A stretch of DNA of 32,000 nucleotides, from positions 75,890 to 107,889 of the forward strand of contig JAIPHU010000001.1 in the NCBI GenBank assembly GCA_021735045.1. Reading direction: 5' to 3'. The DNA is from Candidatus Omnitrophota bacterium (GTDB lineage: Bacteria; Omnitrophota; Gorgyraeia; Duberdicusellales; 4484-171). Shown in pieces: positions 5,689 to 31,712 of the stretch. Both the position numbers and the translations under genes were made by a program. Numbering within the stretch: position 1 is the stretch's first letter; each line of letters opens with the position of its first letter. The notes under the pieces are model-generated. The model had not been told where the DNA came from. It did no database searches and was given only the letters and a program-made list of their open reading frames with translations.

Positions 5689-5690
5689 CT

Positions 5691-5832
5691 AAGGGGACGT
5701 TTCCCTGCTTTGTAACTTATTGACCGGTAAGATGTTATAGAACCTTGTTTTCTAACCAGTTCTAAAGACGGAAAATGCTTGTTTGTAACTTATTTATAAC
5801 CAAAAGGTTATAAACGAGGGGAACGTCCCCTT
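5691..5832. repeat. ~142-bp unit bounded by inverted termini AAGGGGACGTT / AACGTCCCCTT; same terminus family as 1412-1559
   Basis: 5691-5701 and 5822-5832 are exact reverse complements. Internal 13-bp direct repeat TTTGTAACTTATT at 5709-5721 and 5782-5794. The right end forms AGGGGA-ACG-TCCCCT followed by TTT, a terminator-like hairpin at 5817-5834. Confidence 0.55.
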
Positions 5833-5939
5833 TTGTAAGCTGTTACGCCCAGCGGCGTCTTTCATAGTTAAATGATAGTTCATAGGCGCCACCTCCTTTA
5901 TAATAACTTAAAACAAAAGGTGACGCTTGAAAATAGAAA

Positions 5940-6006: not shown

Positions 6007-6034
6007 TTGACATCGTTTGTCTGTATAGTATAAT
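6007..6034 (+). promoter_or_regulatory. Sigma-70 type promoter of the rex-hydrogenase operon
   Basis: TTGACA (6007-6012), 16-nt spacer, TATAAT (6029-6034). It lies 30 nt upstream of the rex ATG. Confidence 0.6.
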
Positions 6035-6038
6035 TATT

Positions 6039-6060
6039 AATCGTTACTAATTTCACGATT
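6039..6060. promoter_or_regulatory. Candidate Rex operator (autoregulation)
   Basis: AATCGT-N10-ACGATT inverted repeat directly after the -10. The inner cgTTAC-TAAT-TTCACg resembles the TGTGAA-N4-TTCACA Rex box: right half 5/6, left half only 3/6. Confidence 0.3.
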
Positions 6061-6064
6061 TGCT

Positions 6065-6688
6065 ATGAAATCAATTTCACGTAAAACTATTGACAGAGCT
6101 CTTTTGTATATCAGAGCTTTAGAAAATTTGCTTAAAGAAAAGAGAGATAAAATTTCTTCTTTGGAATTAGCCGATATTACCGGCAGCTCTGACGTCCAAA
6201 TCCGAAAAGATATATCTTTTTTTGGTAAAGTAGGAACACCTCGAATAGGTTATGAAACAAAAAAATTAAAAGATATTCTAGAAAATTTTATTCTCCAAAA
6301 CAATGTTGTTCATATCGCCTTATTTGGTGTAGGTAATTTAGGAAAAGCAATATTAAAATATCCGGGCTTTCAAACTGATAAAATTAAATTAGTTGCTGCT
6401 TTTGATAAAGCAAAAAGCAAGTTATTAAAAGAAATTAATGGAATTAAAATTTATCCGGTTGAGAGGTCTGTTGAATTAATTAAAAAAGTTCATGCTGAAA
6501 TTGGAATCATTGCAGTTCCTCCCAGAAGCAGCCAAGAGGTTGCGGATATTATGGTTAAAGCGGGTTTAAAAGGGATAATAAATTTTGCACCAAGTTGCAT
6601 CTCTGTTCCTAAAAACACATTTGTTAAGAATATAGATTTTTCAATAGAAATATTATCGATTTTTTCTCATACTCAATTTCAGAAATAA
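6065..6688 (+). CDS. rex: Redox-sensing transcriptional repressor Rex
   Basis: Winged-helix N-terminus (SSLELADITGSSDVQIRKDISFFG) plus NAD(H) Rossmann GVGNLGKAIL...IIAVP. 207 aa, typical Rex size. Confidence 0.9.
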   Translation: MKSISRKTIDRALLYIRALENLLKEKRDKISSLELADITGSSDVQIRKDISFFGKVGTPRIGYETKKLKDILENFILQNNVVHIALFGVGNLGKAILKYPGFQTDKIKLVAAFDKAKSKLLKEINGIKIYPVERSVELIKKVHAEIGIIAVPPRSSQEVADIMVKAGLKGIINFAPSCISVPKNTFVKNIDFSIEILSIFSHTQFQK

Positions 6689-6708
6689 ATAATTTTTAGG
6701 AGGTAGGT

Positions 6709-7080
6709 ATGGCAAAAATTTTAATGGTAGATGATGACAGAGAATTTTTAGAAGCATCTAAGGCAGTGCTTTCGGCTGAAGGTTATCAAGTTATATTGAC
6801 TAAAAATGTTTCGCAAGCTGAAAAAAAGATCAAAGAAGAGAAGCCGGATATGATTTTTCTTGATGTGATGATGGAAGCACCTGATGATGGTATTGTTTTT
6901 GCCCATAAATTAAAAAAAGAAAATGTTGGTATTCCAATTGTTATGTTAAGTGCTATAGGTAAAGTTACCGGATATAGCCATAACCGTTGTGATGAGGTTA
7001 TGCCTTGTGATGGGTTTTTAGAAAAACCGGTTAATCCAAAAAGCTTATTAAATAAGGTTAAAAAGATCGTAGGTAAATAA
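6709..7080 (+). CDS. Single-domain response regulator receiver (CheY-like, no output domain)
   Basis: VDDD8-10, phospho-acceptor Asp52 (IFLDVMM), Ser81 (VMLSA), Lys105 (LEKP). 123 aa. RBS AGGAGG 8 nt upstream. Confidence 0.85.
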   Translation: MAKILMVDDDREFLEASKAVLSAEGYQVILTKNVSQAEKKIKEEKPDMIFLDVMMEAPDDGIVFAHKLKKENVGIPIVMLSAIGKVTGYSHNRCDEVMPCDGFLEKPVNPKSLLNKVKKIVGK

Positions 7081-7097
7081 TAGAGGAGAGTGTAGTC

Positions 7098-7577
7098 ATG
7101 GATAAAATGTGTTCAGTATCAAAAACCATAACTCAGGGAAAAAAGAAAATCCAGGTTTGTGATGCAACTCGTAGCCAACTTATTCCGATATTACGGCAAA
7201 TTCAGGAAAAAAAAGGTTATATATCTGATAAGAACATGCAAGAAGTTGCGTCTTCTTTGGGGATACATCCAGTTGAAGTTTATTCTGTTGTTACCTTTTA
7301 TTCTTTTTTAACTACTGAAAAAAAAGGAAAACATATTATCAGAATAAGTAATTGTATATCCTCGGTTATGGCAGGCAGTAAAAGAATTATTAAAATTTTT
7401 GAAAAAGAGTTAGGAATAAAGGTGGGAGAAACTACTAAAGATAAAAAGCTTAGCTTAGAAGAGACTAGTTGCATTGGGATGTGTGATCAAGCCCCAGCTG
7501 CTTTAATTGACGGAAATTTAATCGGCAAGCTAACGGCAAAAAAAGTAAAAAATATAGTTAAAGAATTAAAAAAGTAA
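7098..7577 (+). CDS. NuoE/HydC-like thioredoxin-fold subunit (module 1) with non-canonical [2Fe-2S] Cys pattern
   Basis: IPILRQIQEKKGYISDKNMQEVASSLGIHPVEVYSVVTFYSFL and SCIGMCDQAPA are NuoE-family hallmarks. The first Cys pair is replaced (ISNCISSVMAGS). Confidence 0.8.
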   Translation: MDKMCSVSKTITQGKKKIQVCDATRSQLIPILRQIQEKKGYISDKNMQEVASSLGIHPVEVYSVVTFYSFLTTEKKGKHIIRISNCISSVMAGSKRIIKIFEKELGIKVGETTKDKKLSLEETSCIGMCDQAPAALIDGNLIGKLTAKKVKNIVKELKK

Positions 7578-7592
7578 AATAGGGGAGAAAAT

Positions 7593-8774
7593 ATGACAAA
7601 AACGCGTAAAGGACCAATTATATTTAGTAAAAGCAAGCCTTTTTCTGGATTAAAGAATGCGATAGATATAGGCAGAAGTGAAGTTTTAGATTATGTACGT
7701 AAATCTAATATTAAAGGTAGGGGCGGAGCAGGTTTTCCCACTGGTGTTAAATGGAATCTTACCGCTACTGCTTCTGATAAGAAAAAATATGTTATTTGTA
7801 ATGCCGATGAGGGTGAACCAGGAACTTTTAAAGATAGAGTCCTTTTAGATGAATATGCAAAACTTGTTTTTGAGGGAATGGTTATTTGTGCGTTTGCTGT
7901 AGGTGCTGATGAAGGCATCTTGTATCTACGCGGTGAATATATATCATTTCTTCCTGAGCTGGAAAAAACCTTAAATCAGATGAGAAAGAATAATTTATTA
8001 GGTAAAAATATTTTAGGCAAAAAAGGCTTTAATTTCGATATAAAGATAAGATTAGGTGTCGGGGCCTATGTTTGCGGTGAAGAAACTTCTCTTATTGAAT
8101 CATTAGAAGGATATAGAGGTGAACCCCGCAACAAACCTCCTTTCCCTACCAATACTGGATTTGCAGGTCATCCTACAGTTATAAATAATGTTGAAACTTT
8201 TGCAGCAATAGCTCATATAATTTTAAAAGGGCCAGATTGGTTTAGATCTATTGGAACTGAAAAATCTTCTGGGTCTAAACTAATAAGTGTATCTGGTGAT
8301 TGTAAAAAACCAGGTGTTTATGAAATTCCTTTTGGAACCACTATTAAAAAAATTTTAAAACTAACAGAAGCTAAAGACACTAAAGCTGTTGAAGTAGGGG
8401 GTGCATCAGGAGTTTGTGTGGCTAAATCAGAATTTGGCAGAAAGATTGCTTACGAAGATTTATCTACTGGTGGTTCTATTATAATTTTTAGCAAAAAAAG
8501 GGATTTATTGGAGGTAGCTAAAAATTTTCTTGATTTTTTTGCTGAAGAATCTTGCGGCCAATGCACACCTTGCCGAGAAGGTATTCCGGTGTTACAAGAA
8601 AAATTAGATAAATTACAACAAAAAAAAGCAACAAAGGGTGACCTTGAAGATATTTTTTCTTTAGCTGAGACTATGTACTTAGCTTCAAAGTGTGGCTTAG
8701 GCCAAACTGCTGCTTCAGCTTTTGTTTCGATATTAAGTAATTTTAAAAAAGATTATGTTTTGGTTAAATCATAA
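7593..8774 (+). CDS. NuoF-like FMN/NADH-binding subunit (module 1), core only
   Basis: GRGGAGFPTGVKW, CNADEGEPGTFKDR, GAYVCGEETSLIESLEG, ESCGQCTPCREG...KCGLGQTA (complete CxxCxxC...C). 393 aa. It lacks the N-terminal [2Fe-2S] and C-terminal 2x[4Fe-4S] domains seen in the second copy. Confidence 0.85.
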   Translation: MTKTRKGPIIFSKSKPFSGLKNAIDIGRSEVLDYVRKSNIKGRGGAGFPTGVKWNLTATASDKKKYVICNADEGEPGTFKDRVLLDEYAKLVFEGMVICAFAVGADEGILYLRGEYISFLPELEKTLNQMRKNNLLGKNILGKKGFNFDIKIRLGVGAYVCGEETSLIESLEGYRGEPRNKPPFPTNTGFAGHPTVINNVETFAAIAHIILKGPDWFRSIGTEKSSGSKLISVSGDCKKPGVYEIPFGTTIKKILKLTEAKDTKAVEVGGASGVCVAKSEFGRKIAYEDLSTGGSIIIFSKKRDLLEVAKNFLDFFAEESCGQCTPCREGIPVLQEKLDKLQQKKATKGDLEDIFSLAETMYLASKCGLGQTAASAFVSILSNFKKDYVLVKS

Positions 8775-8789
8775 GGAGGAATCTTATTT

Positions 8790-10706
8790 ATGGCTAAAGA
8801 ACCTTTTACAAAACCTACTTCGCGTGCTCCGGTAAGTCAAAGGTCGCAAACTGTAGGTAAAATTAACAAAAAAGCTTTAGGGGGAAAAGTAACTGCAGTA
8901 ATTGATGGTATTGAAATTAAAGTTCCTATGGGAACAACTATTTTAGAAGCAGCTAAAAAAATAGGTATAAAAATACCGACTCTTTGCCATCATGAGGATT
9001 TATGTTTAGCTGGGGTATGCCGTGTTTGCTTGGTTGAAGTGGAGGGGCAAAAAACCTTACAGGCATCTTGTTCTTATCCGATTATTCATAATGTAGTAGT
9101 TAAAACTTATTCATCACGGGTAAGGCGAGCTAGAAAAAATATTATTCATCTTCTTTTACGCAATCATTATGGTGAATGTTATTCTTGTGAAAAAAATAAT
9201 AATTGTGAACTGCAAGATTTAGCAGAAGAATATGGTGTTACCGAATATAAGTTTGGCCATATTCAGGAGAGGCGTTTTCAGCCTGATCTTTCGAGTTCTG
9301 CTATAACTAAAGATAATGATAAATGTATAAATTGTAAAAGATGTATCAGGACTTGCATTGATTTGCAAGAAGTTGGAGTTTATGAATCAGTTAATCGCGG
9401 GCCAGAAACAAAAGTTTCGACTTATTTAAATAAGCCTTATTCAGATGTAATTTGTATAAATTGCGGACAATGCGTAAATAGATGCCCTACAGGAGCCCTA
9501 AAGGAGAAAAATGATGTTGCAGGTGTATGGAAAGCTATAGATAATCCTAATAAGCATGTTGTGATTCAAACTGCACCAGCACCACGGGCAGCAATTGGAG
9601 AAGAGTTTGGTCTGGCTCCAGGCACCTCAGTTACCAAACAGTTAAATACAGCTATAAAAAGAGTTGGGTTCGATAAGGTTTTTGATACTAACTCGTCAGC
9701 AGATTTAACTATTATGGAAGAAGGTACAGAACTATTGCTTAGGCTTAAGAAATATTTAAAAGAGCAGGATAAAAGCGTTAAATTACCTCAGTTTACTTCT
9801 TGTTCGCCGGGTTGGATCAAATATTTAGAAGATTTTTATCCGGATAAAGTAGATTATTTATCAACTTGTAAAAGCCCCCAACAGATGTTTGGGGCATTAA
9901 TCAAGACATATTATGCAAAAAAAGCAAAAATTGATCCTAAAAACATTGTTAGTGTATCATTGATGCCGTGTGTTGCTAAAAAATATGAAGCTAAAAGACC
10001 AGAGATGAATGATTCAGGTTATCAGGATGTTGATTATGTTTTAACCACCAGAGAACTTGCGAGCATGGTCAAGGAATGCGGATTAGATTTACCTCGGTTA
10101 CCGGAATCTGACTTTGATAAGCCTCTAGCTATAGGAAGCGGTGCAGGATTAATTTTTGGTGCAACCGGTGGTGTTATGGAAGCAGCTTTACGAACTGCTT
10201 ATGAATTAGTTACCGGTGATGAAGCTCCTTTTAAAAAATTAAGAGTTACTCCAGTAAGAGGTATGGAAGGTATCCGTGATGCTCAAATTCCGATAAAAAA
10301 AGCTAAAAAAGAGTGGAAATTTCTTGAGGGTGCCAGCTTAAAGGTTATGGTTGCTCATGGTACAGCTAATGCTAAAAAAGTAATGGAGATGCTTGAGTTG
10401 GGTAAGTTAGATGATTATCATTTTGTTGAAATTATGGCTTGCCCGGGTGGCTGTTTAGGTGGAGGGGGTCAACCTATCCCTACTACCGACGCAATAAGGA
10501 AACAACGGGCAAAAGCAATATATGCTGAGGACGAACAACTCACTATTAGAAAATCTCATCAGAATCCTGTAGTGGAGACTCTTTATAAAGAGTTTTTAAC
10601 TGATGGGCCATGTGGGCACAAGAGCCACAAATTTTTACATACTCATTATTCTCCGGGTAGTAGTTGGATAGGTAAAAAACCGAGAGTAAAAGTTAGGAAA
10701 AAATAA
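8790..10706 (+). CDS. [FeFe]-hydrogenase HydA-like large subunit (module 1, M3 architecture) with variant L1 motif TSCSPGW
   Basis: N-terminal [2Fe-2S] fold (LCHHEDLCLAGVCRVC), HYGECYSCEKNNNCELQ, two 4Fe-4S motifs (CINCKRCIRTC, CINCGQCVNRCP), L2 MPCVAKKYE, L3 EIMACPGGCLGGGGQP. L1 reads FTSCSPGW instead of TSCCPxW. Confidence 0.85.
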   Translation: MAKEPFTKPTSRAPVSQRSQTVGKINKKALGGKVTAVIDGIEIKVPMGTTILEAAKKIGIKIPTLCHHEDLCLAGVCRVCLVEVEGQKTLQASCSYPIIHNVVVKTYSSRVRRARKNIIHLLLRNHYGECYSCEKNNNCELQDLAEEYGVTEYKFGHIQERRFQPDLSSSAITKDNDKCINCKRCIRTCIDLQEVGVYESVNRGPETKVSTYLNKPYSDVICINCGQCVNRCPTGALKEKNDVAGVWKAIDNPNKHVVIQTAPAPRAAIGEEFGLAPGTSVTKQLNTAIKRVGFDKVFDTNSSADLTIMEEGTELLLRLKKYLKEQDKSVKLPQFTSCSPGWIKYLEDFYPDKVDYLSTCKSPQQMFGALIKTYYAKKAKIDPKNIVSVSLMPCVAKKYEAKRPEMNDSGYQDVDYVLTTRELASMVKECGLDLPRLPESDFDKPLAIGSGAGLIFGATGGVMEAALRTAYELVTGDEAPFKKLRVTPVRGMEGIRDAQIPIKKAKKEWKFLEGASLKVMVAHGTANAKKVMEMLELGKLDDYHFVEIMACPGGCLGGGGQPIPTTDAIRKQRAKAIYAEDEQLTIRKSHQNPVVETLYKEFLTDGPCGHKSHKFLHTHYSPGSSWIGKKPRVKVRKK

Positions 10707-10707
10707 C

Positions 10708-11457
10708 GTGAATAGTAAAAAATATAAGAAAAAAGATAAGTTAGATATTTCTAATCAAGAACTTGAGTCTTCTGATAAACAGTATCTTGATTTAGTTGGT
10801 TTTGTCTCGCATGAGCTAAAAGGAATTCTTTCTTCGGTTGTTTTAAATACCTATAATTTGCAAAATGGCCTATTGGGAGATCTAAATCCAGCTCAGAAAA
10901 AAACATTAAAATCTATAAGTAGAAATTTAGATTATTTAACTACAACTGTTCGTAATTTTTTGAATTTTAGCCGGATTGAAAAACAAGAGTTATCTTTGAA
11001 TAAATTTCGTTGTCTATTCAAAGAAGATATAGTTGATGTTTCCATTGATTCATATTCACAAGCAGCTGCAGATAAAGATATAAAAATTATAAATAAAGCA
11101 ATCTCTTCGCTAGAGGTAGAAGTAGATTCAGGATTGTTACAGATAGCATTAAATAATCTTTTATCTAATGCGATAAAATATGGCAAAGAAGGCCGGGAGG
11201 TTGTAATTTCAACTGAATTAGATAACAATAAAGTTATAGTTGAAATATATAATCAGGGTGAATCTATAGATAAGACTGATATTGATAAGTTATTTAAAAA
11301 GTTTAGCCGTCTGCATTATCGCGGTACCGAAAAGATAAAAGGAACCGGAATTGGCCTTTATATTACCAAAGAGATTATCAACCAGCATCATGGAAATATC
11401 TGGGTTGAACCAAAGCCAGAAGGAAATAGTTTTAAGTTCAGTTTAGAGGTGGTATAA
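10708..11457 (+). CDS. Soluble histidine kinase consisting only of DHp (HisKA) and HATPase_c domains
   Basis: H-box FVSHELKGIL (His35), N-box LLSNAIKYG, G2 GTGIGLYITKEII. No TM segment or sensor domain. GTG start 1 nt after the hydA1 stop. Confidence 0.8.
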   Translation: MNSKKYKKKDKLDISNQELESSDKQYLDLVGFVSHELKGILSSVVLNTYNLQNGLLGDLNPAQKKTLKSISRNLDYLTTTVRNFLNFSRIEKQELSLNKFRCLFKEDIVDVSIDSYSQAAADKDIKIINKAISSLEVEVDSGLLQIALNNLLSNAIKYGKEGREVVISTELDNNKVIVEIYNQGESIDKTDIDKLFKKFSRLHYRGTEKIKGTGIGLYITKEIINQHHGNIWVEPKPEGNSFKFSLEVV

Positions 11458-11482
11458 TAACGGCTCGAAAATTTTAAAAAAA

Positions 11483-12352
11483 ATGAAAAATAAAATCTTA
11501 ATTATTGATGATGATGCTGATTTTGTAGAAGCAATCTCTTTACTATTGGAAGCAAACGGTTATAAAACATTGCAAGCTTATAATGGTAAAGAAGGTTTTG
11601 CTCAAGCAAAAGAGCAGGTGCCTGATTTGATAATGTTGGATATGAAGATGGCATATCAAACTGAAGGTGCTGAAACTGCTAAAGCAATGTCAAAAGATGC
11701 AGAAATAAAGGATATCCCAGTCATTTTAGCAACTGGAATCGGTAAAGAGTTGACTAAAAAGTTAAAAGAGATCCTTAGGAATGAAGCAATGTCAGTTAAA
11801 ACTGTTATTGAAAAGCCAATAGAAGCAAAAGAGCTTCTTAAAATAATAAAGAATTATATAGGTGAAAGTGGCGGCAAAGAACATAGAGAATTAATCAAAC
11901 AAATTACCAGTTTTGCTAATAAATGGAAAGGCAAGAAAGGTAATTTAGTTATGATTCTTCATGAAATACAAAATTATTATGGTTATGTACCCAGGGGTAT
12001 TTCGTTTCAATTATCTCGGTTATTAGGTATTCCTTTAGCAAGAATTTATGAAGTTATAACCTTTTATAATTTTTTCAAGCTTTCGCCTCCTGGCAAACAT
12101 GTGATTTCGGTTTGTATGGGGACAGCTTGTTATCTAAAGGGTGCTGCGGAGTTAGTTGATAAGATTAAAAGTCTTCTTAAAATAGAAGAAGGCCAAACTA
12201 CAGAAGACGGTTTGTTTCATCTTCAAGTTGTTAGATGCCTAGGTTGTTGTGGTCTTGCTCCTGTAGTTATGGTTGATCAAAAAATATATTCAAAAGTTGT
12301 GCCAGATAGCATCGAAGGTATTGTTTCTAGATACAGGCAGGATAAAAGTTAA
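11483..12352 (+). CDS. hydC: Receiver domain fused to NuoE/HydC [2Fe-2S] subunit (REC::HydC, module 2)
   Basis: aa 1-~125 form a receiver: DDD9-11, Asp53 (IMLDMKM), Thr84, Lys111. aa ~135-289 form a NuoE-type domain with canonical CMGTAC...CLGCCGLAP. Single uninterrupted 289-aa ORF. Confidence 0.85.
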   Translation: MKNKILIIDDDADFVEAISLLLEANGYKTLQAYNGKEGFAQAKEQVPDLIMLDMKMAYQTEGAETAKAMSKDAEIKDIPVILATGIGKELTKKLKEILRNEAMSVKTVIEKPIEAKELLKIIKNYIGESGGKEHRELIKQITSFANKWKGKKGNLVMILHEIQNYYGYVPRGISFQLSRLLGIPLARIYEVITFYNFFKLSPPGKHVISVCMGTACYLKGAAELVDKIKSLLKIEEGQTTEDGLFHLQVVRCLGCCGLAPVVMVDQKIYSKVVPDSIEGIVSRYRQDKS

Positions 12353-12353
12353 T

Positions 12354-14156
12354 ATGGATAAATTAAATCAAAAAAAAATAGAAGAACTTAGAGAAAAACT
12401 TCAAAAGCAAAGACCGGGTTTTGTTAAGGTTGGAGTAAGTTCTTGTGGAATAGCAGCTGGAGCAAATGATGTATTAGATCGTTTTATAGCTTTAAAAAAG
12501 AAAAATAATTTAGATATTGAAATTAGAAAGTGTGGTTGTGCTGGTATGTGTTATGCAGAGCCATTGGTGGAAGTTTCTTTAGACGGTAGAGATTCTGTAA
12601 CTTATAAAGAAGTTACACCTGAACTAGTAGAAAAAATAGTAAAAAATCATATTATCTCCGGAAAAATCCAAGAGGATTATGTTTATAAAACCGATACTGA
12701 AAAAAAACAGTTTAAGTTAATTCTTTCCAATTGTGGAAAAGTTAACCCAGAAAGTATCAATGATTATATTTCTTTGGGTGGTTACCGAGCTGTAGAAAAA
12801 GTTCTTATTAAAGAAAATAGGCAAGAGGTAATTGATCAGTTGAAAATAAGTGGTTTGAGAGGAAGAGGCGGGGGAGGTTTTCCCACCTGGTTAAAATGGA
12901 ATTTTGCTAAAGGAGTTAACGCAGATAAAAAGTATATAATCTGTAATGGCGACGAGGGTGATCCCGGGGCTTATATGGATAGGAGCCTTCTAGAGGGTAA
13001 TCCTCATGCAATTATTGAGGGGATGATTATTGCTGGTTTTGCTGTAGGGGCAGATGAAGGGTTTTTTTATATTCGAGCCGAATATCCTCTTGCAATTTCT
13101 CGAGTTCAAAAAGCAATTGATGCTGCTATTGATTATGGATTATTGGGAGAAAATATTTTAGATACTGGGTTTAACTTTAATTTACAAATTCGTCTTGGTG
13201 CCGGTGCGTTTGTTTGTGGAGAAGAAACTGCTTTAATTGCATCTATTGAAGGTAAGCGTGGCTATCCTTCTCCGCGTCCTCCCTATCCTTCTGTAAAAGG
13301 CCTTTGGTCGAAACCAACGGTGATCAACAACGTTGAAACTTTAGCTAATATTCCAATTATATTTGATAAAGGAGGAGATTGGTTTTCAAAAATTGGAAGT
13401 CAAAACTCTAAAGGTACCAAGGTATTTGCTCTCACCGGGAAAGTTAAAAATTCTGGTTTAGTTGAAGTTCCGATGGGCACGACTTTAGGTGAAATTGTTT
13501 ATGGTATTGGTGGCGGTGTATCTGGCGGCAAAGTGAAGGCGATTCAGACTGGTGGGCCTTCCGGAGGAGTTATTCCTAAAGAATACTTTGATACTCCTGT
13601 AAATTATGAAAGTTTGCAAAAATTAGGTTCCATAATGGGTTCCGGCGGAATGATTGTTATGGATGAAAAGGATTGTATGGTTGATATCGCTAAATTTTAT
13701 ATGAAATTTTGTGTAGAAGAGGCTTGTGGTAAATGTTCTCCTGGCCGCATTGGAACTTATCAGATGTTACAATATCTTAAAAAGATATCCAAGGGTAAAG
13801 CAAACATGAATGATTTACAGTTATTAGAGGATATTGCTTATGCGGTTCAAAGGACCGCTTTGTGTGGGTTAGGCCAAACTGCACCTAATCCCGTAGTATC
13901 AACTTTAAAGTATTTTCGCGATGAATATATTGCGCATATTAAAGAACAAAGATGTCCAGCGGGAAAATGTAAAGATTTAGCAAAATATAAGATAGTTGAA
14001 GACAAGTGTAAAAAATGTGGTGCTTGTATTAAAGTTTGTCCAGTAGAGGCGATTTCAGGAGATAAAGATAAGGGCTACAAGATAGATCAAAAAAAGTGTA
14101 TCCAGTGTGGTAAATGTTTCCAAGTTTGTAGTTTTGATGCAATAAAAAAAGGTTAA
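12354..14156 (+). CDS. hydB: HydB (NuoF-like NADH/FMN subunit with N-terminal [2Fe-2S] and C-terminal 2x[4Fe-4S] domains), module 2
   Basis: Start at ATG 12354, 1 nt after the previous stop. SSCG...KCGCAGMC; GRGGGGFPTWLKW; CNGDEGDPGAYMDR; CKKCGACIKVCP; CIQCGKCFQVCS. The N3 motif reads ACGKCSPGRIG (third Cys is Gly). Confidence 0.85.
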   Translation: MDKLNQKKIEELREKLQKQRPGFVKVGVSSCGIAAGANDVLDRFIALKKKNNLDIEIRKCGCAGMCYAEPLVEVSLDGRDSVTYKEVTPELVEKIVKNHIISGKIQEDYVYKTDTEKKQFKLILSNCGKVNPESINDYISLGGYRAVEKVLIKENRQEVIDQLKISGLRGRGGGGFPTWLKWNFAKGVNADKKYIICNGDEGDPGAYMDRSLLEGNPHAIIEGMIIAGFAVGADEGFFYIRAEYPLAISRVQKAIDAAIDYGLLGENILDTGFNFNLQIRLGAGAFVCGEETALIASIEGKRGYPSPRPPYPSVKGLWSKPTVINNVETLANIPIIFDKGGDWFSKIGSQNSKGTKVFALTGKVKNSGLVEVPMGTTLGEIVYGIGGGVSGGKVKAIQTGGPSGGVIPKEYFDTPVNYESLQKLGSIMGSGGMIVMDEKDCMVDIAKFYMKFCVEEACGKCSPGRIGTYQMLQYLKKISKGKANMNDLQLLEDIAYAVQRTALCGLGQTAPNPVVSTLKYFRDEYIAHIKEQRCPAGKCKDLAKYKIVEDKCKKCGACIKVCPVEAISGDKDKGYKIDQKKCIQCGKCFQVCSFDAIKKG

Positions 14157-14158
14157 TT

Positions 14159-15904
14159 ATGCCCAAAGCAATAATAAATAACAAAGAAGTCATAGTTGAG
14201 GAAGGTACAACAATTCTTGATGCTGCCAAAAAGATAAATATAGATATTCCTACTTTGTGTAAGCATCCTGACTTAGATGCCAGTGCTGCTTGCGGTATTT
14301 GCGTAGTTAAGGTCAAAGGGTCAAAAAAGATGCTTCGGGCTTGCTGTACTGCGTTAGAAGAAGGTATGAATATAATCACTCATGACAATGAACTTCAGAA
14401 GATAAGAAGGACGGTTATCGAATTAATTTTATCAAATCATCCTAATGATTGCCTTCAATGTGCGCGCAACAATAACTGTGAGCTACAAAAACTAGCTGCT
14501 GATTTTGGAATAAGGGAATTTCCTTTTCCTCAATTTTTAAGAGATGTCCCTGAAGATGAATCTACTAAAACCATTGATCTTGTTCCTTCAAAGTGTATTC
14601 TTTGTGGCAGGTGTGTACAGGTGTGCCAGGATTTACAAGATGTTTGGGCACTTTCTTTTATTGAAAGAGGACACAAAACTAGGATTTCTGCTGCCGGAGA
14701 TATTAATTTGTCAGAAAGTCCTTGTATTCGTTGTGGGCAGTGTTCGGCCCATTGTCCTACCGGTGCTATTGCCGAGCATGATCAAACCGAAGATGTTTGG
14801 AGGGCTTTATATAACGAGAAAAAATATTGTATGGTTCAAATTGCTCCTGCTGTAAGAGTTGCGATCGGAGAAGCATTTAATCTTCCTATTGGCGCGAATT
14901 TAACTGGGAAAATTTATTCGGCTCTCCGGCGTCTAGGTTTTAATGCAGTATTTGATACTTCTTTTGGCGCAGATGTTACTGTTATGGAGGAAGCTACTGA
15001 GTTTGTGGAACGTTTTGTTCATAAAAAGGGTAAATTACCTTTGATAACTACTTGCTGCCCCTCTTGGGTTGATTTTATGGAAAAATTTTATCCGGATATG
15101 ATTGATAATTTTTCTTCCTCAAAATCTCCTCATGAGATGTTAGGGGTATTAGCAAAAACTTATTTTGCCCAAAAAAATAAAATAGATCCAAAAGATATGT
15201 ATATGGTATCAATCATGCCTTGTACATCCAAAAAATATGAAATAAGCCGCAGCAATCAAATGTATGCCTCAGGATATCAAGATGTTGATACATCATTAAC
15301 TACTCGTGAATTAGCAAGAATGATAAAACAGGCCGGAATTGATTTTGCTAATTTAGAAGAAGAGAAGGCTGATAATATTTTAGGTGATTATACCGGGGCG
15401 GGAGTAATTTTTGGCGCAACCGGTGGGGTTATGGAAGCAGCTTTACGAACTGCTTATTTTTTAATTACTGGTAAAAACTTTAAAGAGGTAAAATATAATG
15501 ATGTGCGTGGCCTTGAGGGTGTAAAAGAAACAGTTGTAAATATTGCGGGAGAAAAAGTGAGGATAGCTATAGCTCATGGTATGGGAAATGTTGAAGCTGT
15601 TTTAAATAAAATCCGTCAAGCTTTGGCTGAAGGCAAAAAGCCTCCTTATGATTTTATTGAAGTTATGGCTTGTCCGGGTGGCTGTATCGGTGGGGGCGGC
15701 CAACCTTATGGAGTTACGGATCAGCTTCGTATTGCCAGGGCATCTGGCCTGTATAGTGATGATGATAAAAAAGAGATTCATTTTTCTCATGATAATCCAT
15801 ACATAAAACAATTATATGATAGCTTTTTAGGTAAACCGTCAGGAGAAAAAGCTAAAAAATTATTGCATACGCGCTATGTGCCGCGTCCGCTTTACAAAAA
15901 ATAG
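14159..15904 (+). CDS. hydA: [FeFe]-hydrogenase catalytic subunit HydA (M3 type, canonical H-cluster motifs), module 2
   Basis: L1 TTCCPSW, L2 MPCTSKKYE, L3 EVMACPGGCIGGGGQP. N-terminal [2Fe-2S], HPNDCLQCARNNNCELQ, CILCGRCVQVC, CIRCGQCSAHCP. Confidence 0.9.
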   Translation: MPKAIINNKEVIVEEGTTILDAAKKINIDIPTLCKHPDLDASAACGICVVKVKGSKKMLRACCTALEEGMNIITHDNELQKIRRTVIELILSNHPNDCLQCARNNNCELQKLAADFGIREFPFPQFLRDVPEDESTKTIDLVPSKCILCGRCVQVCQDLQDVWALSFIERGHKTRISAAGDINLSESPCIRCGQCSAHCPTGAIAEHDQTEDVWRALYNEKKYCMVQIAPAVRVAIGEAFNLPIGANLTGKIYSALRRLGFNAVFDTSFGADVTVMEEATEFVERFVHKKGKLPLITTCCPSWVDFMEKFYPDMIDNFSSSKSPHEMLGVLAKTYFAQKNKIDPKDMYMVSIMPCTSKKYEISRSNQMYASGYQDVDTSLTTRELARMIKQAGIDFANLEEEKADNILGDYTGAGVIFGATGGVMEAALRTAYFLITGKNFKEVKYNDVRGLEGVKETVVNIAGEKVRIAIAHGMGNVEAVLNKIRQALAEGKKPPYDFIEVMACPGGCIGGGGQPYGVTDQLRIARASGLYSDDDKKEIHFSHDNPYIKQLYDSFLGKPSGEKAKKLLHTRYVPRPLYKK

Positions 15905-15959
15905 TTATTTGCCCTAAAGCAAGGATTTTTCTAAAACTAAGGGGTATTGGTGTTAATTT

Positions 15960-15990
15960 CCAACCTTCTTAGGTTGGTTTTTTTATTTTT
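15960..15990 (+). terminator. Intrinsic terminator after hydA
   Basis: CCAACCT-TCTT-AGGTTGG (15960-15977) followed by TTTTTTTATTTTT. Confidence 0.7.
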
Positions 15991-16000
15991 AGGAGGTTTT

Positions 16001-16252
16001 ATGGAACAAAGGCTGGGTTTTGTGGGAATTATTATTGAAGAGCGTTTAAAAGTGGCAAAAAAGGTTAATTCTGTTCTTTTTGATTTCGGTGAAATTATCA
16101 TTGGGAGGATAGGGCTTCCTTATAAAGAAAAGTCGTGCAATGTTATTACTCTTATTATAAACGCTAACAGTGATCAACTAGGTGCATTAACTGGTCAATT
16201 GGGAAAAGTAGAAGGGGTTTCGGTAAAGTCAGCTTTGGCTAAGAAAAAATAA
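16001..16252 (+). CDS. TM1266-like ACT-fold protein (putative iron-only hydrogenase system regulator family)
   Basis: Start at ATG 16001 behind AGGAGG (15991-15996). IIGRIGLPYKEK...GQLGKVEGVSVKSAL matches my recollection of the TM1266/TIGR03959 family. Sits directly upstream of hydF. Confidence 0.7.
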   Translation: MEQRLGFVGIIIEERLKVAKKVNSVLFDFGEIIIGRIGLPYKEKSCNVITLIINANSDQLGALTGQLGKVEGVSVKSALAKKK

Positions 16253-16253
16253 T

Positions 16254-17516
16254 ATGAGAAAAACACCTAAATCATTAAGGTTACAATTAGGTCTATTTGG
16301 AAGGACTAATATCGGCAAGTCAACTTTTTTAAATATGGTTGCTGGCCAAGATGTATCGATAACTTCTTCGGTCCCGGGGACTACAACCGATGTTGTCGAA
16401 AAATCAATGGAACTTCTTCCGGTTGGCCCAGTAGTTTTTCTAGATACTGCCGGCGTAGATGATGACTCAGAGTTGGCTTCTCTAAGGCTCATAAAGACAA
16501 GGAAAATTTTTGATCGGGCTGATATTATTATACTTTTAGTAGAGCCTGATATTTGGTCGAGTTTTGAGAGATCAGTTGCTTTTGAGGCGGAAAAGAGAAG
16601 CATTCCTTTAATTATAGTTGTAAATAAGGTTGATCAAAAAAAGCCAAAAGAAGATTTTATTCAAAAGATCAAAAAACATACTAATTTTTATCTATTAGTA
16701 TCTAGTCTGGATATAAAAAATAGGGATAAATATGTCAACTTGTTAAAAAGTTATTTAATAAAATGCTGCCCGGATGATTTTATAAATCCGCCTTCTTTAG
16801 TCGGGGATCTTTTACCGGAAGGTGGCCTAGCGGTTTTAATTGTTCCGATTGATCTTGAAGCTCCCAAAGGAAGGATCATTTTACCTCAAGTACAAACTAT
16901 AAGAGATTGCCTAGACAATAAACAAATGGCTTTAGTTGTTAAAGAAAGTGAATATGTCAGCAGTCTTAGCAAGTTAAATAATAATCCGGATTTGGTTATT
17001 TGTGATTCGCAGGTAGTATCATTTATGGTAAAAAATAGCCCTTCGGGTATAAATTGCACTACATTTTCAATTGTTTTTTCACGCAATAAAGGAGAGCTGG
17101 CCGAAGAGGTAAAGGCTGTTACTGCCATTGATAGACTAAAAAATGGTGATAAGGTTTTAATTGCTGAAGCTTGTTCTCATCATCCGATAGAAGATGATAT
17201 TGGGCGCATAAAGATACCTAAATGGTTAAGGCAATATACAAAAAAAGAGATAAAAATTGATTCTTGTGCTGGAAGGGATTATCCCGACAATTTATCAAAA
17301 TATAAACTAATCATTCATTGTGGCGGATGCATGATAACACGTAGAGAGATGTTGTTTAGAATTCAAAAAGCTAAAGAACAGAAAGTTGCTTTGACCAATT
17401 ATGGTCTGGCGATATCGCATTTGCAAGGAGTACTAGAGAGAGTGTTGTCTCCTTTTCCAGCCGCGTATGATATATACAAACAAGAAAGAAATGGGGGTTA
17501 TAATAATGAAAACTAA
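16254..17516 (+). CDS. hydF: [FeFe]-hydrogenase maturation GTPase HydF
   Basis: G1 GRTNIGKS, G3 DTAG, G4 NKVD. C-terminal FeS motif EACSHHP ... HCGGC. Confidence 0.9.
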   Translation: MRKTPKSLRLQLGLFGRTNIGKSTFLNMVAGQDVSITSSVPGTTTDVVEKSMELLPVGPVVFLDTAGVDDDSELASLRLIKTRKIFDRADIIILLVEPDIWSSFERSVAFEAEKRSIPLIIVVNKVDQKKPKEDFIQKIKKHTNFYLLVSSLDIKNRDKYVNLLKSYLIKCCPDDFINPPSLVGDLLPEGGLAVLIVPIDLEAPKGRIILPQVQTIRDCLDNKQMALVVKESEYVSSLSKLNNNPDLVICDSQVVSFMVKNSPSGINCTTFSIVFSRNKGELAEEVKAVTAIDRLKNGDKVLIAEACSHHPIEDDIGRIKIPKWLRQYTKKEIKIDSCAGRDYPDNLSKYKLIIHCGGCMITRREMLFRIQKAKEQKVALTNYGLAISHLQGVLERVLSPFPAAYDIYKQERNGGYNNEN

Positions 17517-19005
17517 AAAGATAGATTTGGGTCTATGGAAAAAAAATAGGATAAAAGAAGATGAGATCAAAAGATATAAGAAAGAAGGCCAAGGATCCTT
17601 TATTGATCATAAAAAAATAGAATTTCTTTTGGCAAAGAAAAGAAAAATTAGTAAAAAAGAAATCAAAGATATTTTAGCAAAGTCTTTAACAATTGAGGCT
17701 TTAAGTTTAGAAGAAACAGCAGTGCTGCTTTCTGTAGAGGATAAAGAATTACTTTCTTTAATGGAGGAAACCGCTTATAAAATAAAAAGGAATGTTTATG
17801 ACAACAGAATTGTAACCTTTGCTCCGCTGTATTTGGGCAATTTCTGTGTTAATGACTGTCTTTACTGCGGGTTCCGTGAATCAAATAAAAATGCTTGCAG
17901 AAAAGTTTTAAGCAGGGATGAAATTATTTCTGATACAAAAGTTTTAGCAGGAAAAATTGGGCATAAGCGTTTAATTGTTGTCTACGGTGAACATCCAAAA
18001 AATGATGTAGATTATATAGAAAAGAGTATAAAAGCTATTTATTCAGTAAAAGAAAAGACTAAAAATGGTTTTGGCCAGATTAGAAGAGTTAATGTAAATG
18101 CTCCTCCTTTTGCAATTGATGATTTGAAAAAGCTGCATGAAGTAGGTATTGGTACTTATCAGGTTTTTCAAGAGACCTATCATCCTGAAACTTACCGGAA
18201 AGTTCACCCCCAGAACACAATCAAGGGTAACTATGACTGGCGTCTTTATTGTATGCATCGGGCGTTTGAGGCGGGGATCGATGATCTAGGAATTGGTGTT
18301 CTTTTTGGATTGTATGATTGGAAGTTTGAATTGATGGGATTAGTTGCTCATGCTCATGAATTGGAAAATAAATTTGGGGTTGGGCCGCATACCATCTCGT
18401 TTCCAAGGTTAGAACCGGCTGATAGTTCGCCTTATACGCAAAATTCAAAGTTTAAAGTTAGTGATAAAGATTTCCGAAGATTAATTACTGTAATTAGGTT
18501 AGCTGTTCCTTATACGGGAATGATTATTACAGCCAGAGAGACTCCTCAAATACGAGAAGATTCTTTAACATTAGGGGTTACCCAAACCGATGCTTCTTCT
18601 CGGATTGGAATTGGCGGTTATAGTAAAGCTACCCAAACTCAGGAAAGCAATCGGCAGCAATTTTTGTTAGGAGATACAAGAAGTTTAGATGAAGTAGTTA
18701 GAAAGTTTTCGGAAATGGGTTTTATAACCTCATTTTGTACAGCGGGATATCGTTGTGGCAGAACCGGTAAATGCATCATGGATTTGTTAAAAAAGGGCGA
18801 GGAAGGTAAATTCTGTAAGCTTAACGCGGTTTTAACTTTTCGTGAGTGGCTTGATGATTTTGCAACTCCAGAAACTAAAAGGGCCGGGGAGCTAGTTATA
18901 AAAAAGGAAATTCAAGAAGTAAAAACAAGAAATCTAAAAATATACGAGCAATTTATTAATTTTTATGATAGGATAAAAAGGGGTGAAAGGGACTTATACT
19001 TTTAG
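17506..19005 (+). CDS. hydG: Radical SAM HydG-like (ThiH/HydG family) maturase with variant C-terminal Cys motif
   Basis: FAPLYLGNFCVNDCLYCGFR radical-SAM CX3CX2C; GHKRLIVVYGEHP. C-terminal SFCTAGYRCGRTGKC...FCKLNA. Start chosen at ATG 17506 (GGGGG 8 nt upstream), overlapping hydF by 11 nt. Confidence 0.8.
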   Translation: MKTKKIDLGLWKKNRIKEDEIKRYKKEGQGSFIDHKKIEFLLAKKRKISKKEIKDILAKSLTIEALSLEETAVLLSVEDKELLSLMEETAYKIKRNVYDNRIVTFAPLYLGNFCVNDCLYCGFRESNKNACRKVLSRDEIISDTKVLAGKIGHKRLIVVYGEHPKNDVDYIEKSIKAIYSVKEKTKNGFGQIRRVNVNAPPFAIDDLKKLHEVGIGTYQVFQETYHPETYRKVHPQNTIKGNYDWRLYCMHRAFEAGIDDLGIGVLFGLYDWKFELMGLVAHAHELENKFGVGPHTISFPRLEPADSSPYTQNSKFKVSDKDFRRLITVIRLAVPYTGMIITARETPQIREDSLTLGVTQTDASSRIGIGGYSKATQTQESNRQQFLLGDTRSLDEVVRKFSEMGFITSFCTAGYRCGRTGKCIMDLLKKGEEGKFCKLNAVLTFREWLDDFATPETKRAGELVIKKEIQEVKTRNLKIYEQFINFYDRIKRGERDLYF

Positions 19006-31074: not shown

Positions 31075-31712
31075 ATCTCATCGTAATTAATGTTGTAAGC
31101 CATACTGCAAATTATTTTTTTTAAATTTTTTGAAAGAATTTCGGCGTTTGTTTCGTCTATATAGTAGAGGGGAAACAATGCCGGGTAAACGTAGATCAAT
31201 CAGATTAAAAGAATATGATTATGCCCAACAGGGCGCGTATTTTGTCACCATATGTGTAAATAACCGGAAATGTTTGTTTGGTGATGTATTTAATGGGGAA
31301 ATGATATTAAACGAACGTGGTAGAATTGTTCAACAGGAATGGCATAAAACGGGGAAAATCCGTAAAAATATTGAATTGGATGAATTTGTTATAATGCCGA
31401 ACCATTTGCATGGCATAATAAATATTGTAGGGGCACATTGCAATGTGCCCCTACATGACCGTATTGAACAATTTGGCCGTTCTACGTCAAATTCAATACC
31501 AACAATTGTTAAATTATTTAAATCAACAACAACCAAACAAATAAATATAATTCGAAATACCGCCGGTATTCGTCTTTGGCAACGCAATTATTACGAGCAT
31601 GTTATTCGCAATGAGTTCGAATTAAACTGCATTCGCGAATACATCGCGACTAATCCAGCCAATTGGAAACAGGATCAATATTATTCTGAATAAGGCATCT
31701 CAACCGTAATTA
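31075..31712 (+). mobile_element. RAYT cassette delimited by 15/16-nt direct repeats ATCTCA(T/AC)CGTAATTA
   Basis: Repeats at 31075-31089 and 31697-31712. Each follows a stop codon within 3-7 nt. The downstream copy contains the perfect palindrome CGTAATTACG. Confidence 0.4.
31178..31693 (+). CDS. REP-associated tyrosine transposase (RAYT) / IS200-like Y1 HUH transposase
   Basis: YFVTICVNNRKCLFG N-terminal strand, HUH motif MPNHLHGII, catalytic Tyr region LWQRNYYEHVIRNE, YIATNPANW. Start at ATG 31178 behind GAGGGG. Confidence 0.8.
   Translation: MPGKRRSIRLKEYDYAQQGAYFVTICVNNRKCLFGDVFNGEMILNERGRIVQQEWHKTGKIRKNIELDEFVIMPNHLHGIINIVGAHCNVPLHDRIEQFGRSTSNSIPTIVKLFKSTTTKQINIIRNTAGIRLWQRNYYEHVIRNEFELNCIREYIATNPANWKQDQYYSE

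Follow-up and report, generated by a model that had tools for sequence, protein, structure and literature searches.

A Rex-headed Omnitrophota operon for two [FeFe]-hydrogenases, a truncated histidine kinase, and a receiver-HydC fusion

A 32,000-nucleotide stretch of a Candidatus Omnitrophota genome (contig JAIPHU010000001.1, positions 75,890 to 107,889; hereafter the window) contains a single operon, at window positions 6007-15977, in which the genes of two trimeric [FeFe]-hydrogenases are interspersed with those of a two-component system. Nine codirectional open reading frames (ORFs) on the forward strand, to which all features below belong unless stated otherwise, specify in order the repressor Rex, a single-domain receiver (REC1), HydC1, a short HydB1, HydA1, a histidine kinase consisting of DHp and CA domains only, a receiver fused to HydC2 (REC::HydC2), HydB2, and HydA2. 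They are separated by 20, 17, 15, 15, 1, 25, 1, and 2 nucleotides (range, 1 to 25). We refer to the first hydrogenase as module 1 and to the second as module 2. Domains were called by Pfam and NCBIfam profile searches of the proteins of the window. An initial annotation of this DNA, made from the sequence alone, had delineated the same unit. Re-reading of the ORFs, domains, promoter, and terminal hairpin upheld its gene order and spacing, with every ORF where it had been placed, together with the phosphorelay residues it had singled out, i.e., His35 of the kinase, Asp52 of REC1, and Asp53 of the fusion.

The two-module order was found again in at least 12 diverged Omnitrophota loci. It is accompanied by a short kinase in the window and in loci L005, L006/7, L008/9/12, L011, and L014, whose kinases are 55 to 93% identical to that of the window, and by a 610-residue kinase with sCache and HAMP domains in L015, L016 (Candidatus Gygaella obscura), L017, L091, L092, L094, and L100. 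Since the same order recurs in diverged Omnitrophota loci, it is neither an assembly chimera, which the initial annotation had proposed to suspect should related genomes lack the arrangement, nor a chance juxtaposition; the gene order is real. One 3.36-Mb Omnitrophota genome carries both halves as separate operons approximately 730 kb apart. The first (L001) encodes Rex, a 610-residue kinase (two transmembrane segments, sCache_3, and HAMP), REC::HydC, HydB, HydA, and a trailing receiver. The second (L010) encodes a receiver, a HydC1-type protein, a short HydB, a HydA1-type protein, TM1266, HydF, and HydG. Module 1 likewise stands alone in L018 and L019, where the accessory genes TM1266, hydF, and hydG follow it. 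Related combinations occur farther afield. Kapabacteria pair unrelated kinases with a receiver, HydC, short HydB, and HydA, and tandem operons of TSCSP-type and TTCCPSW-type hydrogenases (named for a HydA motif discussed below) lie under Rex with no two-component genes in L105, L113, and L126. In metagenome contig Ga0208902_1000029 (L110), the order is receiver, HydC1, HydB1, HydA1, a CMD-family protein, Rex, long kinase, a 160-residue HydC with no detectable receiver, HydB, and HydA, which may mean that the fused receiver was lost or that its gene is split.

Transcription of the window operon is predicted to start from a sigma-70-type promoter (TTGACA-16-TATAAT, 6007..6034) that agrees with the consensus at 12 of 12 positions and is the sole such match between 5600 and 20000. 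The first gene, rex (6065..6688), codes for a redox-sensing (NADH/NAD+) transcriptional repressor (NCBIfam NF003995, 197.5 bits against a cutoff of 126; Pfam Put_DNA-bind_N and CoA_binding). Just 3' of the -10 element lies the Rex-box-like palindrome TCGTTACTAATTTCACGA (6041..6058, no strand assigned), a putative Rex operator that matches TTGTGAA-N4-TTCACAA at 10 of 14 positions. The window holds 26 such sites at up to four mismatches, so that the sequence alone says little and positional conservation is the evidence. Six loci, the window together with L008, L011, L012, L013, and L015, have a Rex-box-like site 25 nucleotides upstream of the rex ATG, and better boxes, with two mismatches, precede rex in L001-L003. 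This pattern suggests that Rex autoregulates the whole operon through the putative site at 6041-6058.

Module 2 resembles a full-length electron-bifurcating hydrogenase. The gene of its receiver-HydC fusion spans 11483..12352 (Pfam, 2Fe-2S_thioredx fusion), and the HydC2 part has the canonical [2Fe-2S] ligands (CMGTAC...CLGCC). hydB2 (12354..14156) most likely starts at the ATG at 12354, giving 600 residues; an overlapping TTG start was set aside in its favor. According to Pfam and alignments to PDB structures, its product has an N-terminal 2Fe-2S domain, the flavoprotein core, and a C-terminal pair of [4Fe-4S] sites. The available text of Losey et al. 2020 (PMC7311640) gives as the bifurcating signature Ala or Glu at position 232 and Met at position 234 of Thermotoga maritima HydB, Phe near the flavin mononucleotide (FMN), a GGPSG motif, and extra Fe-S domains. 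HydB2 displays DEGDPGAYMDR (Ala/Met), GAGAF, GGPSG, and the extra domains. Its N3/B1 motif next to FMN is incomplete: it reads CGKCSPG, with the third Cys of CxxCxxC replaced by Gly464 (13743-13745). L008 has the same replacement (CGKCFPG), and L001, L002, L005, and L006 keep CGKCxPC; the change is therefore real and lineage specific, not a sequencing error. hydA2 (14159..15904; NCBIfam A6, 801.7 bits) encodes a canonical group A3-type catalytic subunit with unaltered H-cluster motifs (TTCCPSW, MPCTSKKYE, and MACPGGCIGGGGQP). Its closest PDB relatives are the HydA proteins of Thermoanaerobacter kivui and Acetobacterium woodii, and it is 44% identical to HydA1. Module 2 is thus probably a catalytic enzyme of the full-length, NADH/ferredoxin electron-bifurcating type, as the initial annotation had held, its remark on a single altered HydB2 Cys included.

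The subunits of module 1 differ from this pattern. HydB1 (7593..8774, 393 residues) is a short NuoF-like flavoprotein with an FMN/NADH site and one [4Fe-4S] cluster, in which Pfam finds Complex1_51K and NADH_4Fe-4S only. Its motifs GRGGAGFPTG, DEGEPGTFKDR, GVGAYVCGEET, GGASG, and CGQCTPC...C are kept in the four lineages compared, and none of these has an N- or C-terminal extension or extra Fe-S domain. The same source characterizes non-bifurcating enzymes by a beta subunit free of additional Fe-S domains, Thr or Ser at T. maritima HydB position 232 and Lys, Ser, or Ala at 234, Tyr instead of Phe near FMN, and no GGPSG in the SLBB region. The "position 367" given there disagrees with our residue count, and the GAGA[F/Y] position was taken as the one meant. 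Where T. maritima has DEGDPG-A232-F-M234, HydB1 has Thr and Lys (DEGEPG-T-F-K-DR), and it combines the Tyr of GVGAYVCGEE with GGASG, no GGPSG being present. Module 1 is thus predicted to be a short-HydB, non-bifurcating enzyme that couples H2 to NADH alone, and on these signatures it probably belongs to a widespread class of such NADH-only hydrogenases.

The initial annotation had emphasized altered cofactor motifs in module 1, which holds for HydC1; in HydA1 the altered motif is a normal variant. The product of hydC1 (7098..7577; Pfam 2Fe-2S_thioredx, 156 bits) is a NuoE-like protein that, aligned to T. kivui and T. maritima HydC, has a genuinely noncanonical [2Fe-2S] motif, S84-N-C86-I-S-S89...C125-x3-C129 (first stretch at 7347-7364): Ser occupies the first two canonical Cys positions, and a Cys lies between the two. 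Replacement of the first canonical Cys, with a Cys two residues later (SxCxx[SNAC]), is shared by all Omnitrophota and Elusimicrobiota module 1 copies. Of these, L010, L016, L017, and L020 retain the second canonical Cys (SxCxxC, four Cys). Bacteroidota and Kapabacteria commonly have short-HydB modules, and there HydC is canonical.

HydA1 (gene at 8790..10706) is a group A3-type catalytic subunit (NCBIfam FeFe_hydrog_A6, 820.9 bits; cutoff, 765) whose L1 motif reads TSCSPGW. Relative to CpI, Ser takes the place of Cys300, which ligates the [4Fe-4S]H subcluster, and Cys is retained at the proton-relay position, Cys299. This motif is the norm of the clade: it occurs in nearly all of 81 HydA1 relatives from many phyla, including enzymes with a full-length bifurcating-type HydB. 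It also recurs in the closest PDB match, A. woodii HydA1 (7q4v_A, 600 bits), with an identical ITSCSPGW in the residue-level alignment. A. woodii HydABC, an active enzyme, carries this serine as Ser301 with no apparent effect on the Fourier-transform infrared spectra of the H-cluster (Katsyv et al. 2023, PMC10021017). HydA1 further has equivalents of E279/E282/R286/S319, of M353/K358/M497, and of the relay Cys, with all cluster Cys in place, and the other F- and H-cluster motifs are kept in its orthologues. A "ligand swap," in which an extra Cys in LS[ST]CKSPQ would offset the Cys300-to-Ser change, was considered and discarded, as HydA1 proteins of Omnitrophota long-kinase and stand-alone loci combine TSCSPGW with Ala at that site. 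HydA1 is thus probably equipped for catalysis, and module 1 probably works as an enzyme rather than as a sensor of H2.

Both modules have a receiver at the N-terminal side of HydC. REC1 (6709..7080; 123 residues; Pfam Response_reg, 69 bits) is encoded by the first gene of module 1 and presents the acidic residues D8-D10, the acceptor D52, S81, and K106; the corresponding residues of REC::HydC2 are D9-D11, D53, T84, and K111, the last three of which are conserved across lineages. The acidic pocket, acceptor Asp, Thr/Ser, and Lys are in fact kept in all three receiver classes, i.e., REC1, the receiver of HydC2, and the trailing receiver of single-module loci. The REC1 gene lies directly 5' of hydC1 in the Omnitrophota module 1 loci that encode it, the stand-alone L010 included, and in Kapabacteria; some stand-alone module 1 loci (L019, L020) show no receiver. 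Because the separate operon L010 begins with a receiver gene, the single-domain receiver belongs to module 1, and its place at the head suggests a module 1 that is targeted by the relay and does not feed it. Apart from the NuoE part of the fusion, Pfam and NCBIfam reveal no helix-turn-helix or other output domain on either receiver. The window encodes no DNA-binding receiver or other plausible regulator for this system elsewhere. These domain calls bear out the earlier description of a phosphorelay devoid of DNA-binding output, for which no targets are visible besides a CheY-like protein and a hydrogenase subunit.

The fusion itself is widespread. At 90% identity, the REC::NuoE architecture makes up at least 120 clusters, nearly all named Omnitrophota. 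At 50%, the main family collapses to one representative, joined by four further representatives at 33 to 34% identity and a tandem (REC::NuoE)x2 protein. In hydrogenase loci, REC::HydC2 is conserved and always adjoins the kinase. When metagenomes were scanned from the fusion alignment with peptide patterns of NuoE only, most of the HydC genes retrieved were nonfused, and only about 12 of 80 loci had fusions. Two distant loci broaden the picture. In L171 (2983-12713), a REC::NuoE protein of 34% identity occurs with a NuoF-type module behind an sCache-HAMP kinase, an NtrC-type sigma-54 regulator, and a REC-REC protein; that kinase may feed both a transcriptional and an enzyme-attached receiver. 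L172 encodes the 578-residue tandem protein (8001-9737), followed, up to position 14520, by a NuoF-like subunit and a molybdopterin subunit of the formate-dehydrogenase-like kind. Since L172 pairs the fusion with a formate-dehydrogenase-like subunit, REC::NuoE is not confined to hydrogenases. Judged from this distribution, the fusion is a recurrent solution in this enzyme family. We found no description of the REC::NuoE fusion, or of any receiver domain on HydABC or Bfu subunits, in the open-access full-text literature. A two-component system with an enzyme-attached receiver, here on [FeFe]-hydrogenases, is thus apparently undescribed.

Taken together, the locus suggests to us, at somewhat better than even probability, a Rex-headed operon for two complete, probably catalytic trimeric [FeFe]-hydrogenases that are both outputs of a dedicated two-component system, with the receiver supplied as a separate protein in module 1 and as part of HydC in module 2. 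Rex would set transcription according to NADH/NAD+. The kinase would phosphorylate Asp52 of REC1 and Asp53 of REC::HydC2, and the phosphorylated receivers would act on the enzymes via HydC, not via DNA, as a posttranslational layer over Rex control. As REC1 adjoins hydC1 and the module 2 receiver is fused to HydC, both receivers are expected, by Rosetta-stone logic, to act on or through HydC. The N-terminal four-helix bundle of HydC lies near the HydA/HydB interface, and in a proposed mechanism of bifurcation, a swing of the HydC [2Fe-2S] domain (HydC-in/out) is a key step (PMC10021017). The relay could thereby shift electron flow between an NADH-only and a bifurcating hydrogenase. The initial annotation had already proposed that the kinase tunes module 2 after translation, and this remains reasonable with the fusion conserved, its acceptor residues kept, and the kinase next door; its companion idea, that module 1 gates the kinase, is not supported, as discussed below.

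The receivers might instead take part in a real relay yet leave enzyme activity untouched. Their contact targets could be others, such as Rex, a sigma factor, maturation, or localization, or REC1 could be a phosphate sink or DivK-like feedback element, with the receiver on HydC2 serving docking or assembly. Single-domain receivers are commonly sinks or allosteric partners, as exemplified by CheY and DivK, and both window receivers score, below threshold, against a DVU0259/DivK-type NCBIfam model (57.5 bits for REC1 and 75.9 for the fused receiver; cutoff, 160). The NtrC-type regulator that accompanies REC::NuoE under a similar kinase in L171 also indicates that transcriptional output exists in relatives. 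We nonetheless consider this alternative improbable. The window shows neither a DNA-binding receiver nor any other plausible target for them, REC1 keeps its fixed position next to hydC1, and maintenance of the HydC fusion in so many clusters, including several independent ones at 50% identity, argues for an effect on the enzyme complex.

The kinase (10708..11457, 249 residues; Pfam HisKA and HATPase_c) starts with GTG 1 nucleotide after the hydA1 stop codon and matches exactly a protein of an NCBI Candidatus Omnitrophota metagenome-assembled genome (P0121). It has no predicted transmembrane segment and no domain besides HisKA and HATPase_c, hence no input domain. Its long orthologues have 610 residues with two transmembrane segments, sCache_3, and HAMP. 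Short kinases align to their C-terminal 225 to 250 residues and begin right after the HAMP/S-helix (...YLDL[VI]GFVSHELKG). Because sister genomes with the same two-module layout carry the 610-residue protein, the short kinase is, on these alignments, a truncated sensor kinase, with sensor, transmembrane, and HAMP parts deleted in the window lineage. The long-kinase loci also indicate, by sharing the two-module order, that the position of module 1 next to the kinase predates loss of the sensor. On the number of truncation events, bootstrapped neighbor-joining trees conflict: module 1 genes unite the short-kinase lineages (72% support), module 2 genes join L005/L006 to L015 (96%), and the kinase alone joins the window clade to L016/L017 (68%).

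What such a truncated protein still does divides the interpretations. One alternative has it as an input-less leftover in an operon controlled only at transcription by Rex, the receivers obtaining their phosphate constitutively, from acetyl phosphate, or from a kinase not linked to the operon. The deletion of the transmembrane, sCache, and HAMP parts fits this account, as do the Rex protein with its positionally conserved Rex-box-like site. In addition, constitutive activity in vitro is typical of histidine kinases isolated as bare DHp-CA cores. Against it, the short kinase is under strong purifying selection (ratio of nonsynonymous to synonymous substitution rates, 0.04 to 0.08), which rules out a decaying remnant. 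The H (SHELKG), N (NNLLSNAIKYG), F (LFKKF), and G2 (GTGIGL) boxes are kept, and the catalytic boxes are intact in six diverged short-kinase loci. A constitutive kinase would, moreover, still be part of the mechanism, so that this account, which we hold to be unlikely, departs from dual control of the hydrogenases only in denying a regulated input. Under dual control, the sensor-less core would most likely act constitutively or respond to cytoplasmic cues, for example the level of its own Rex-controlled expression, the ATP/ADP state, or a partner protein; our best guess is a constitutive or an expression- or ATP/ADP-dependent kinase.

The initial annotation had favored another input, in which module 1, as an H2/redox sensor derived from a hydrogenase, binds and gates the sensor-less kinase in the manner of HoxBC and HoxJ, leaving module 2 to be tuned by the kinase. 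The missing input domain, the kinase start immediately behind hydA1, and the noncanonical [2Fe-2S] site of HydC1 speak for it. So does the position of short kinases, which are found only 3' of module 1, in six of six distinct loci. The comparison with more relatives weakens this last point, and the apparent co-occurrence of short kinase and module 1, perfect in the first six loci, is lost: six distinct short-kinase loci have module 1 upstream and none lack it, and long kinases have it in 6 to 7 distinct loci and lack it in 2 to 3, so that the association is not significant (Fisher p = 0.5). Module 1 thus also precedes kinases with their own sCache sensor (seven loci), and in L010, L018, and L019 it stands alone with TM1266, hydF, and hydG.

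The proteins themselves do not look sensory either. HydA1 comprises only Fer2_4, NADH-G_4Fe-4S_3, Fer4, Fe_hyd_lg_C, and Fe_hyd_SSU, and Pfam detects no PAS or other signaling domain on it. The putative sensory group C/D HydS proteins of T. maritima, T. mathranii, and R. albus are also [FeFe]-hydrogenase homologues, encoded next to A3 hydrogenases and signaling proteins; they have a PAS domain and have lost a conserved Cys near the H-cluster (PMC8924675). HydA1, by contrast, has no PAS domain, the difference from HydS that the initial annotation had itself pointed out. It keeps that relay Cys (TSC-S-PGW in four lineages), and its score above the A6 cutoff and closeness to A. woodii HydA1 place it inside group A and outside the sensory groups. 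Its proton pathway is intact, its L1 motif is that of an active enzyme, and the NADH/FMN and N3 motifs of HydB1 are intact with a non-bifurcating signature. No domain, extension, or obvious interface sets the HydA1 proteins of short-kinase lineages apart; they differ by only 14 diagnostic substitutions, most of them conservative. Finally, the REC1 gene that heads module 1 marks a receiver-bearing target. We therefore regard a dedicated module 1 sensor as very unlikely. Equally improbable to us is the variant in which a working module 1 hydrogenase doubles as sensor, such that the kinase, deprived of its periplasmic domain, takes an H2- or redox-dependent input by protein contact. If true, a module 1-sensing relay would switch the cell between NADH-only and bifurcating H2 metabolism via the receiver on HydC.

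In relatives of the operon, hydA1 and the kinase are separated by a CMD/AhpD-like gene for 113 to 115 residues, among them a CPVC motif (e.g., L008, 9661-10008). It follows hydA1 in long-kinase, short-kinase, and stand-alone loci, which rules it out as a replacement sensor and identifies it as a module 1 accessory. It is cleanly absent from the window and L014, in both of which the kinase starts 1 nucleotide after hydA1, and also from L010.

Returning to the reading of both hydrogenases as outputs of the relay, several observations weigh against it. The gene order and the fused domains are the basis on which phosphotransfer and its effect on enzyme activity are deduced. REC1 and the receiver of HydC2 form separate clades, so that the split and fused states are old and not the result of recent fission, and REC1 could serve another kinase. 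In an AlphaFold2 monomer model of REC::HydC2, the receiver (residues 1-126, ending in alpha5) is joined by approximately five residues to the first HydC helix (132-147); the domains are well modeled, but their relative orientation is not confident (predicted TM-score [pTM], 0.52). HydC1 of the window clade keeps only three Cys at the [2Fe-2S] site and HydB2 has lost one N3/B1 Cys, changes that might impair either module or alter the way it works. The G1 box of the kinase is NxGxS/P and not DxGxG throughout the family, long sensor kinases included. Lastly, the presence of short kinases next to module 1 in all six distinct loci is also what a sensory module 1 would predict.

The closest solved relatives of HydA1 and HydA2 are the HydABC complexes of A. 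woodii and T. kivui (PDB 7Q4V and 8A6T; Katsyv et al. 2023, PMC10021017). They share with module 2 the subunit and cofactor architecture and the bifurcating HydB signature, and the A. woodii enzyme shares with HydA1 the Ser in place of a [4Fe-4S]H ligand. Unlike the window, they have no receiver on HydC and no kinase in the operon; conversely, HydB of module 1 is short, without the N- and C-terminal Fe-S domains, and HydB2 has one N3/B1 Cys fewer. HydB1 finds its counterpart in the non-bifurcating enzymes of Losey et al. 2020 (PMC7311640) and the "sub-type II BfuABC" of Hydrogenedentota (PMC11406978), which, as far as the available text of these sources goes, also combine the absence of extra Fe-S domains with Thr/Lys at 232/234, the GAGAY Tyr, and no GGPSG. 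Non-bifurcating and bifurcating A3 hydrogenases co-occur in genomes (PMC11406978). Relative to those non-bifurcating enzymes, module 1 is headed by a receiver gene, the Cys set of Omnitrophota HydC1 is shifted or incomplete, and an AhpD/CMD-like gene follows hydA1 in relatives.

Among signaling systems, the [NiFe] regulatory sets HoxBC-HoxJ-HoxA and HupUV-HupT-HupR likewise unite a hydrogenase operon with a histidine kinase and a receiver. In these, a specialized low-activity sensor hydrogenase, a PAS input on the kinase, and a DNA-binding output regulator are the rule. Here, in contrast, the ancestral input is a periplasmic sCache domain, the receivers lack DNA-binding domains, and the adjoining hydrogenase looks catalytic. 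Receivers that control a non-DNA target, fused or bound, are familiar from CheB, CheY, DivK, and RssB-type proteins; the partner in the Omnitrophota operon differs from theirs in being a NuoE-like Fe-S subunit of a multisubunit redox enzyme.

A hairpin at 15960..15977, followed by TTTTTTT, lies in the 96-nucleotide gap between hydA2 and a TM1266-like gene and is intergenic given the most likely start of that gene, the ATG at 16001. It is a terminator-like candidate by position, such matches occurring across the region at chance frequency. The TM1266-like gene (16001-16252; Pfam TM1266-like, NCBIfam TIGR03959) encodes a putative regulator and is followed by hydF (16254-17516) and hydG (17467-19005). 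Both were assigned by homology to the hydF and hydG genes of L002, L008, and L010, which in those loci belong to the Pfam families HydF_dimer/HydF_tetramer and Radical_SAM plus BATS, respectively. An aldo/keto reductase gene comes next, and no hydE-like radical-SAM gene occurs between 16001 and 19400. The window also lacks the Lyase_1 gene that separates TM1266 from hydF in L008/L009 and L010 and the second radical-SAM gene that lies 3' of hydG in L008. On the upstream side, the DNA 3' of a heptosyltransferase gene (5690-5860) contains two short G+C-rich hairpins, GGGGACGTTTCCC and GGGGAACGTCCCC, both with a T-rich run behind them; they are probably terminators of that gene, parting it from the hydrogenase promoter. 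Near the end of the window, an IS200/Y1-transposase-like ORF (31130-31693) has a weak Pfam match.

To our knowledge, posttranslational control of electron-bifurcating hydrogenases is essentially unknown, known regulation being transcriptional and exerted by Rex, HoxJ/HoxA-type systems, or putative HydS sensors. A receiver fused to HydC beside a dedicated kinase is therefore a concrete candidate for a phospho-switch on flavin-based electron bifurcation, and the second receiver may provide reciprocal control of the non-bifurcating, NADH-dependent enzyme encoded in the same operon. The sensor-less kinase is of interest in its own right as a natural histidine kinase reduced to its catalytic core and still under selection. 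Since the fusion is common in Omnitrophota, extends to distant lineages, and occurs with a formate-dehydrogenase-type partner, enzyme-attached receivers may be a general means of controlling NuoEF-type redox modules.

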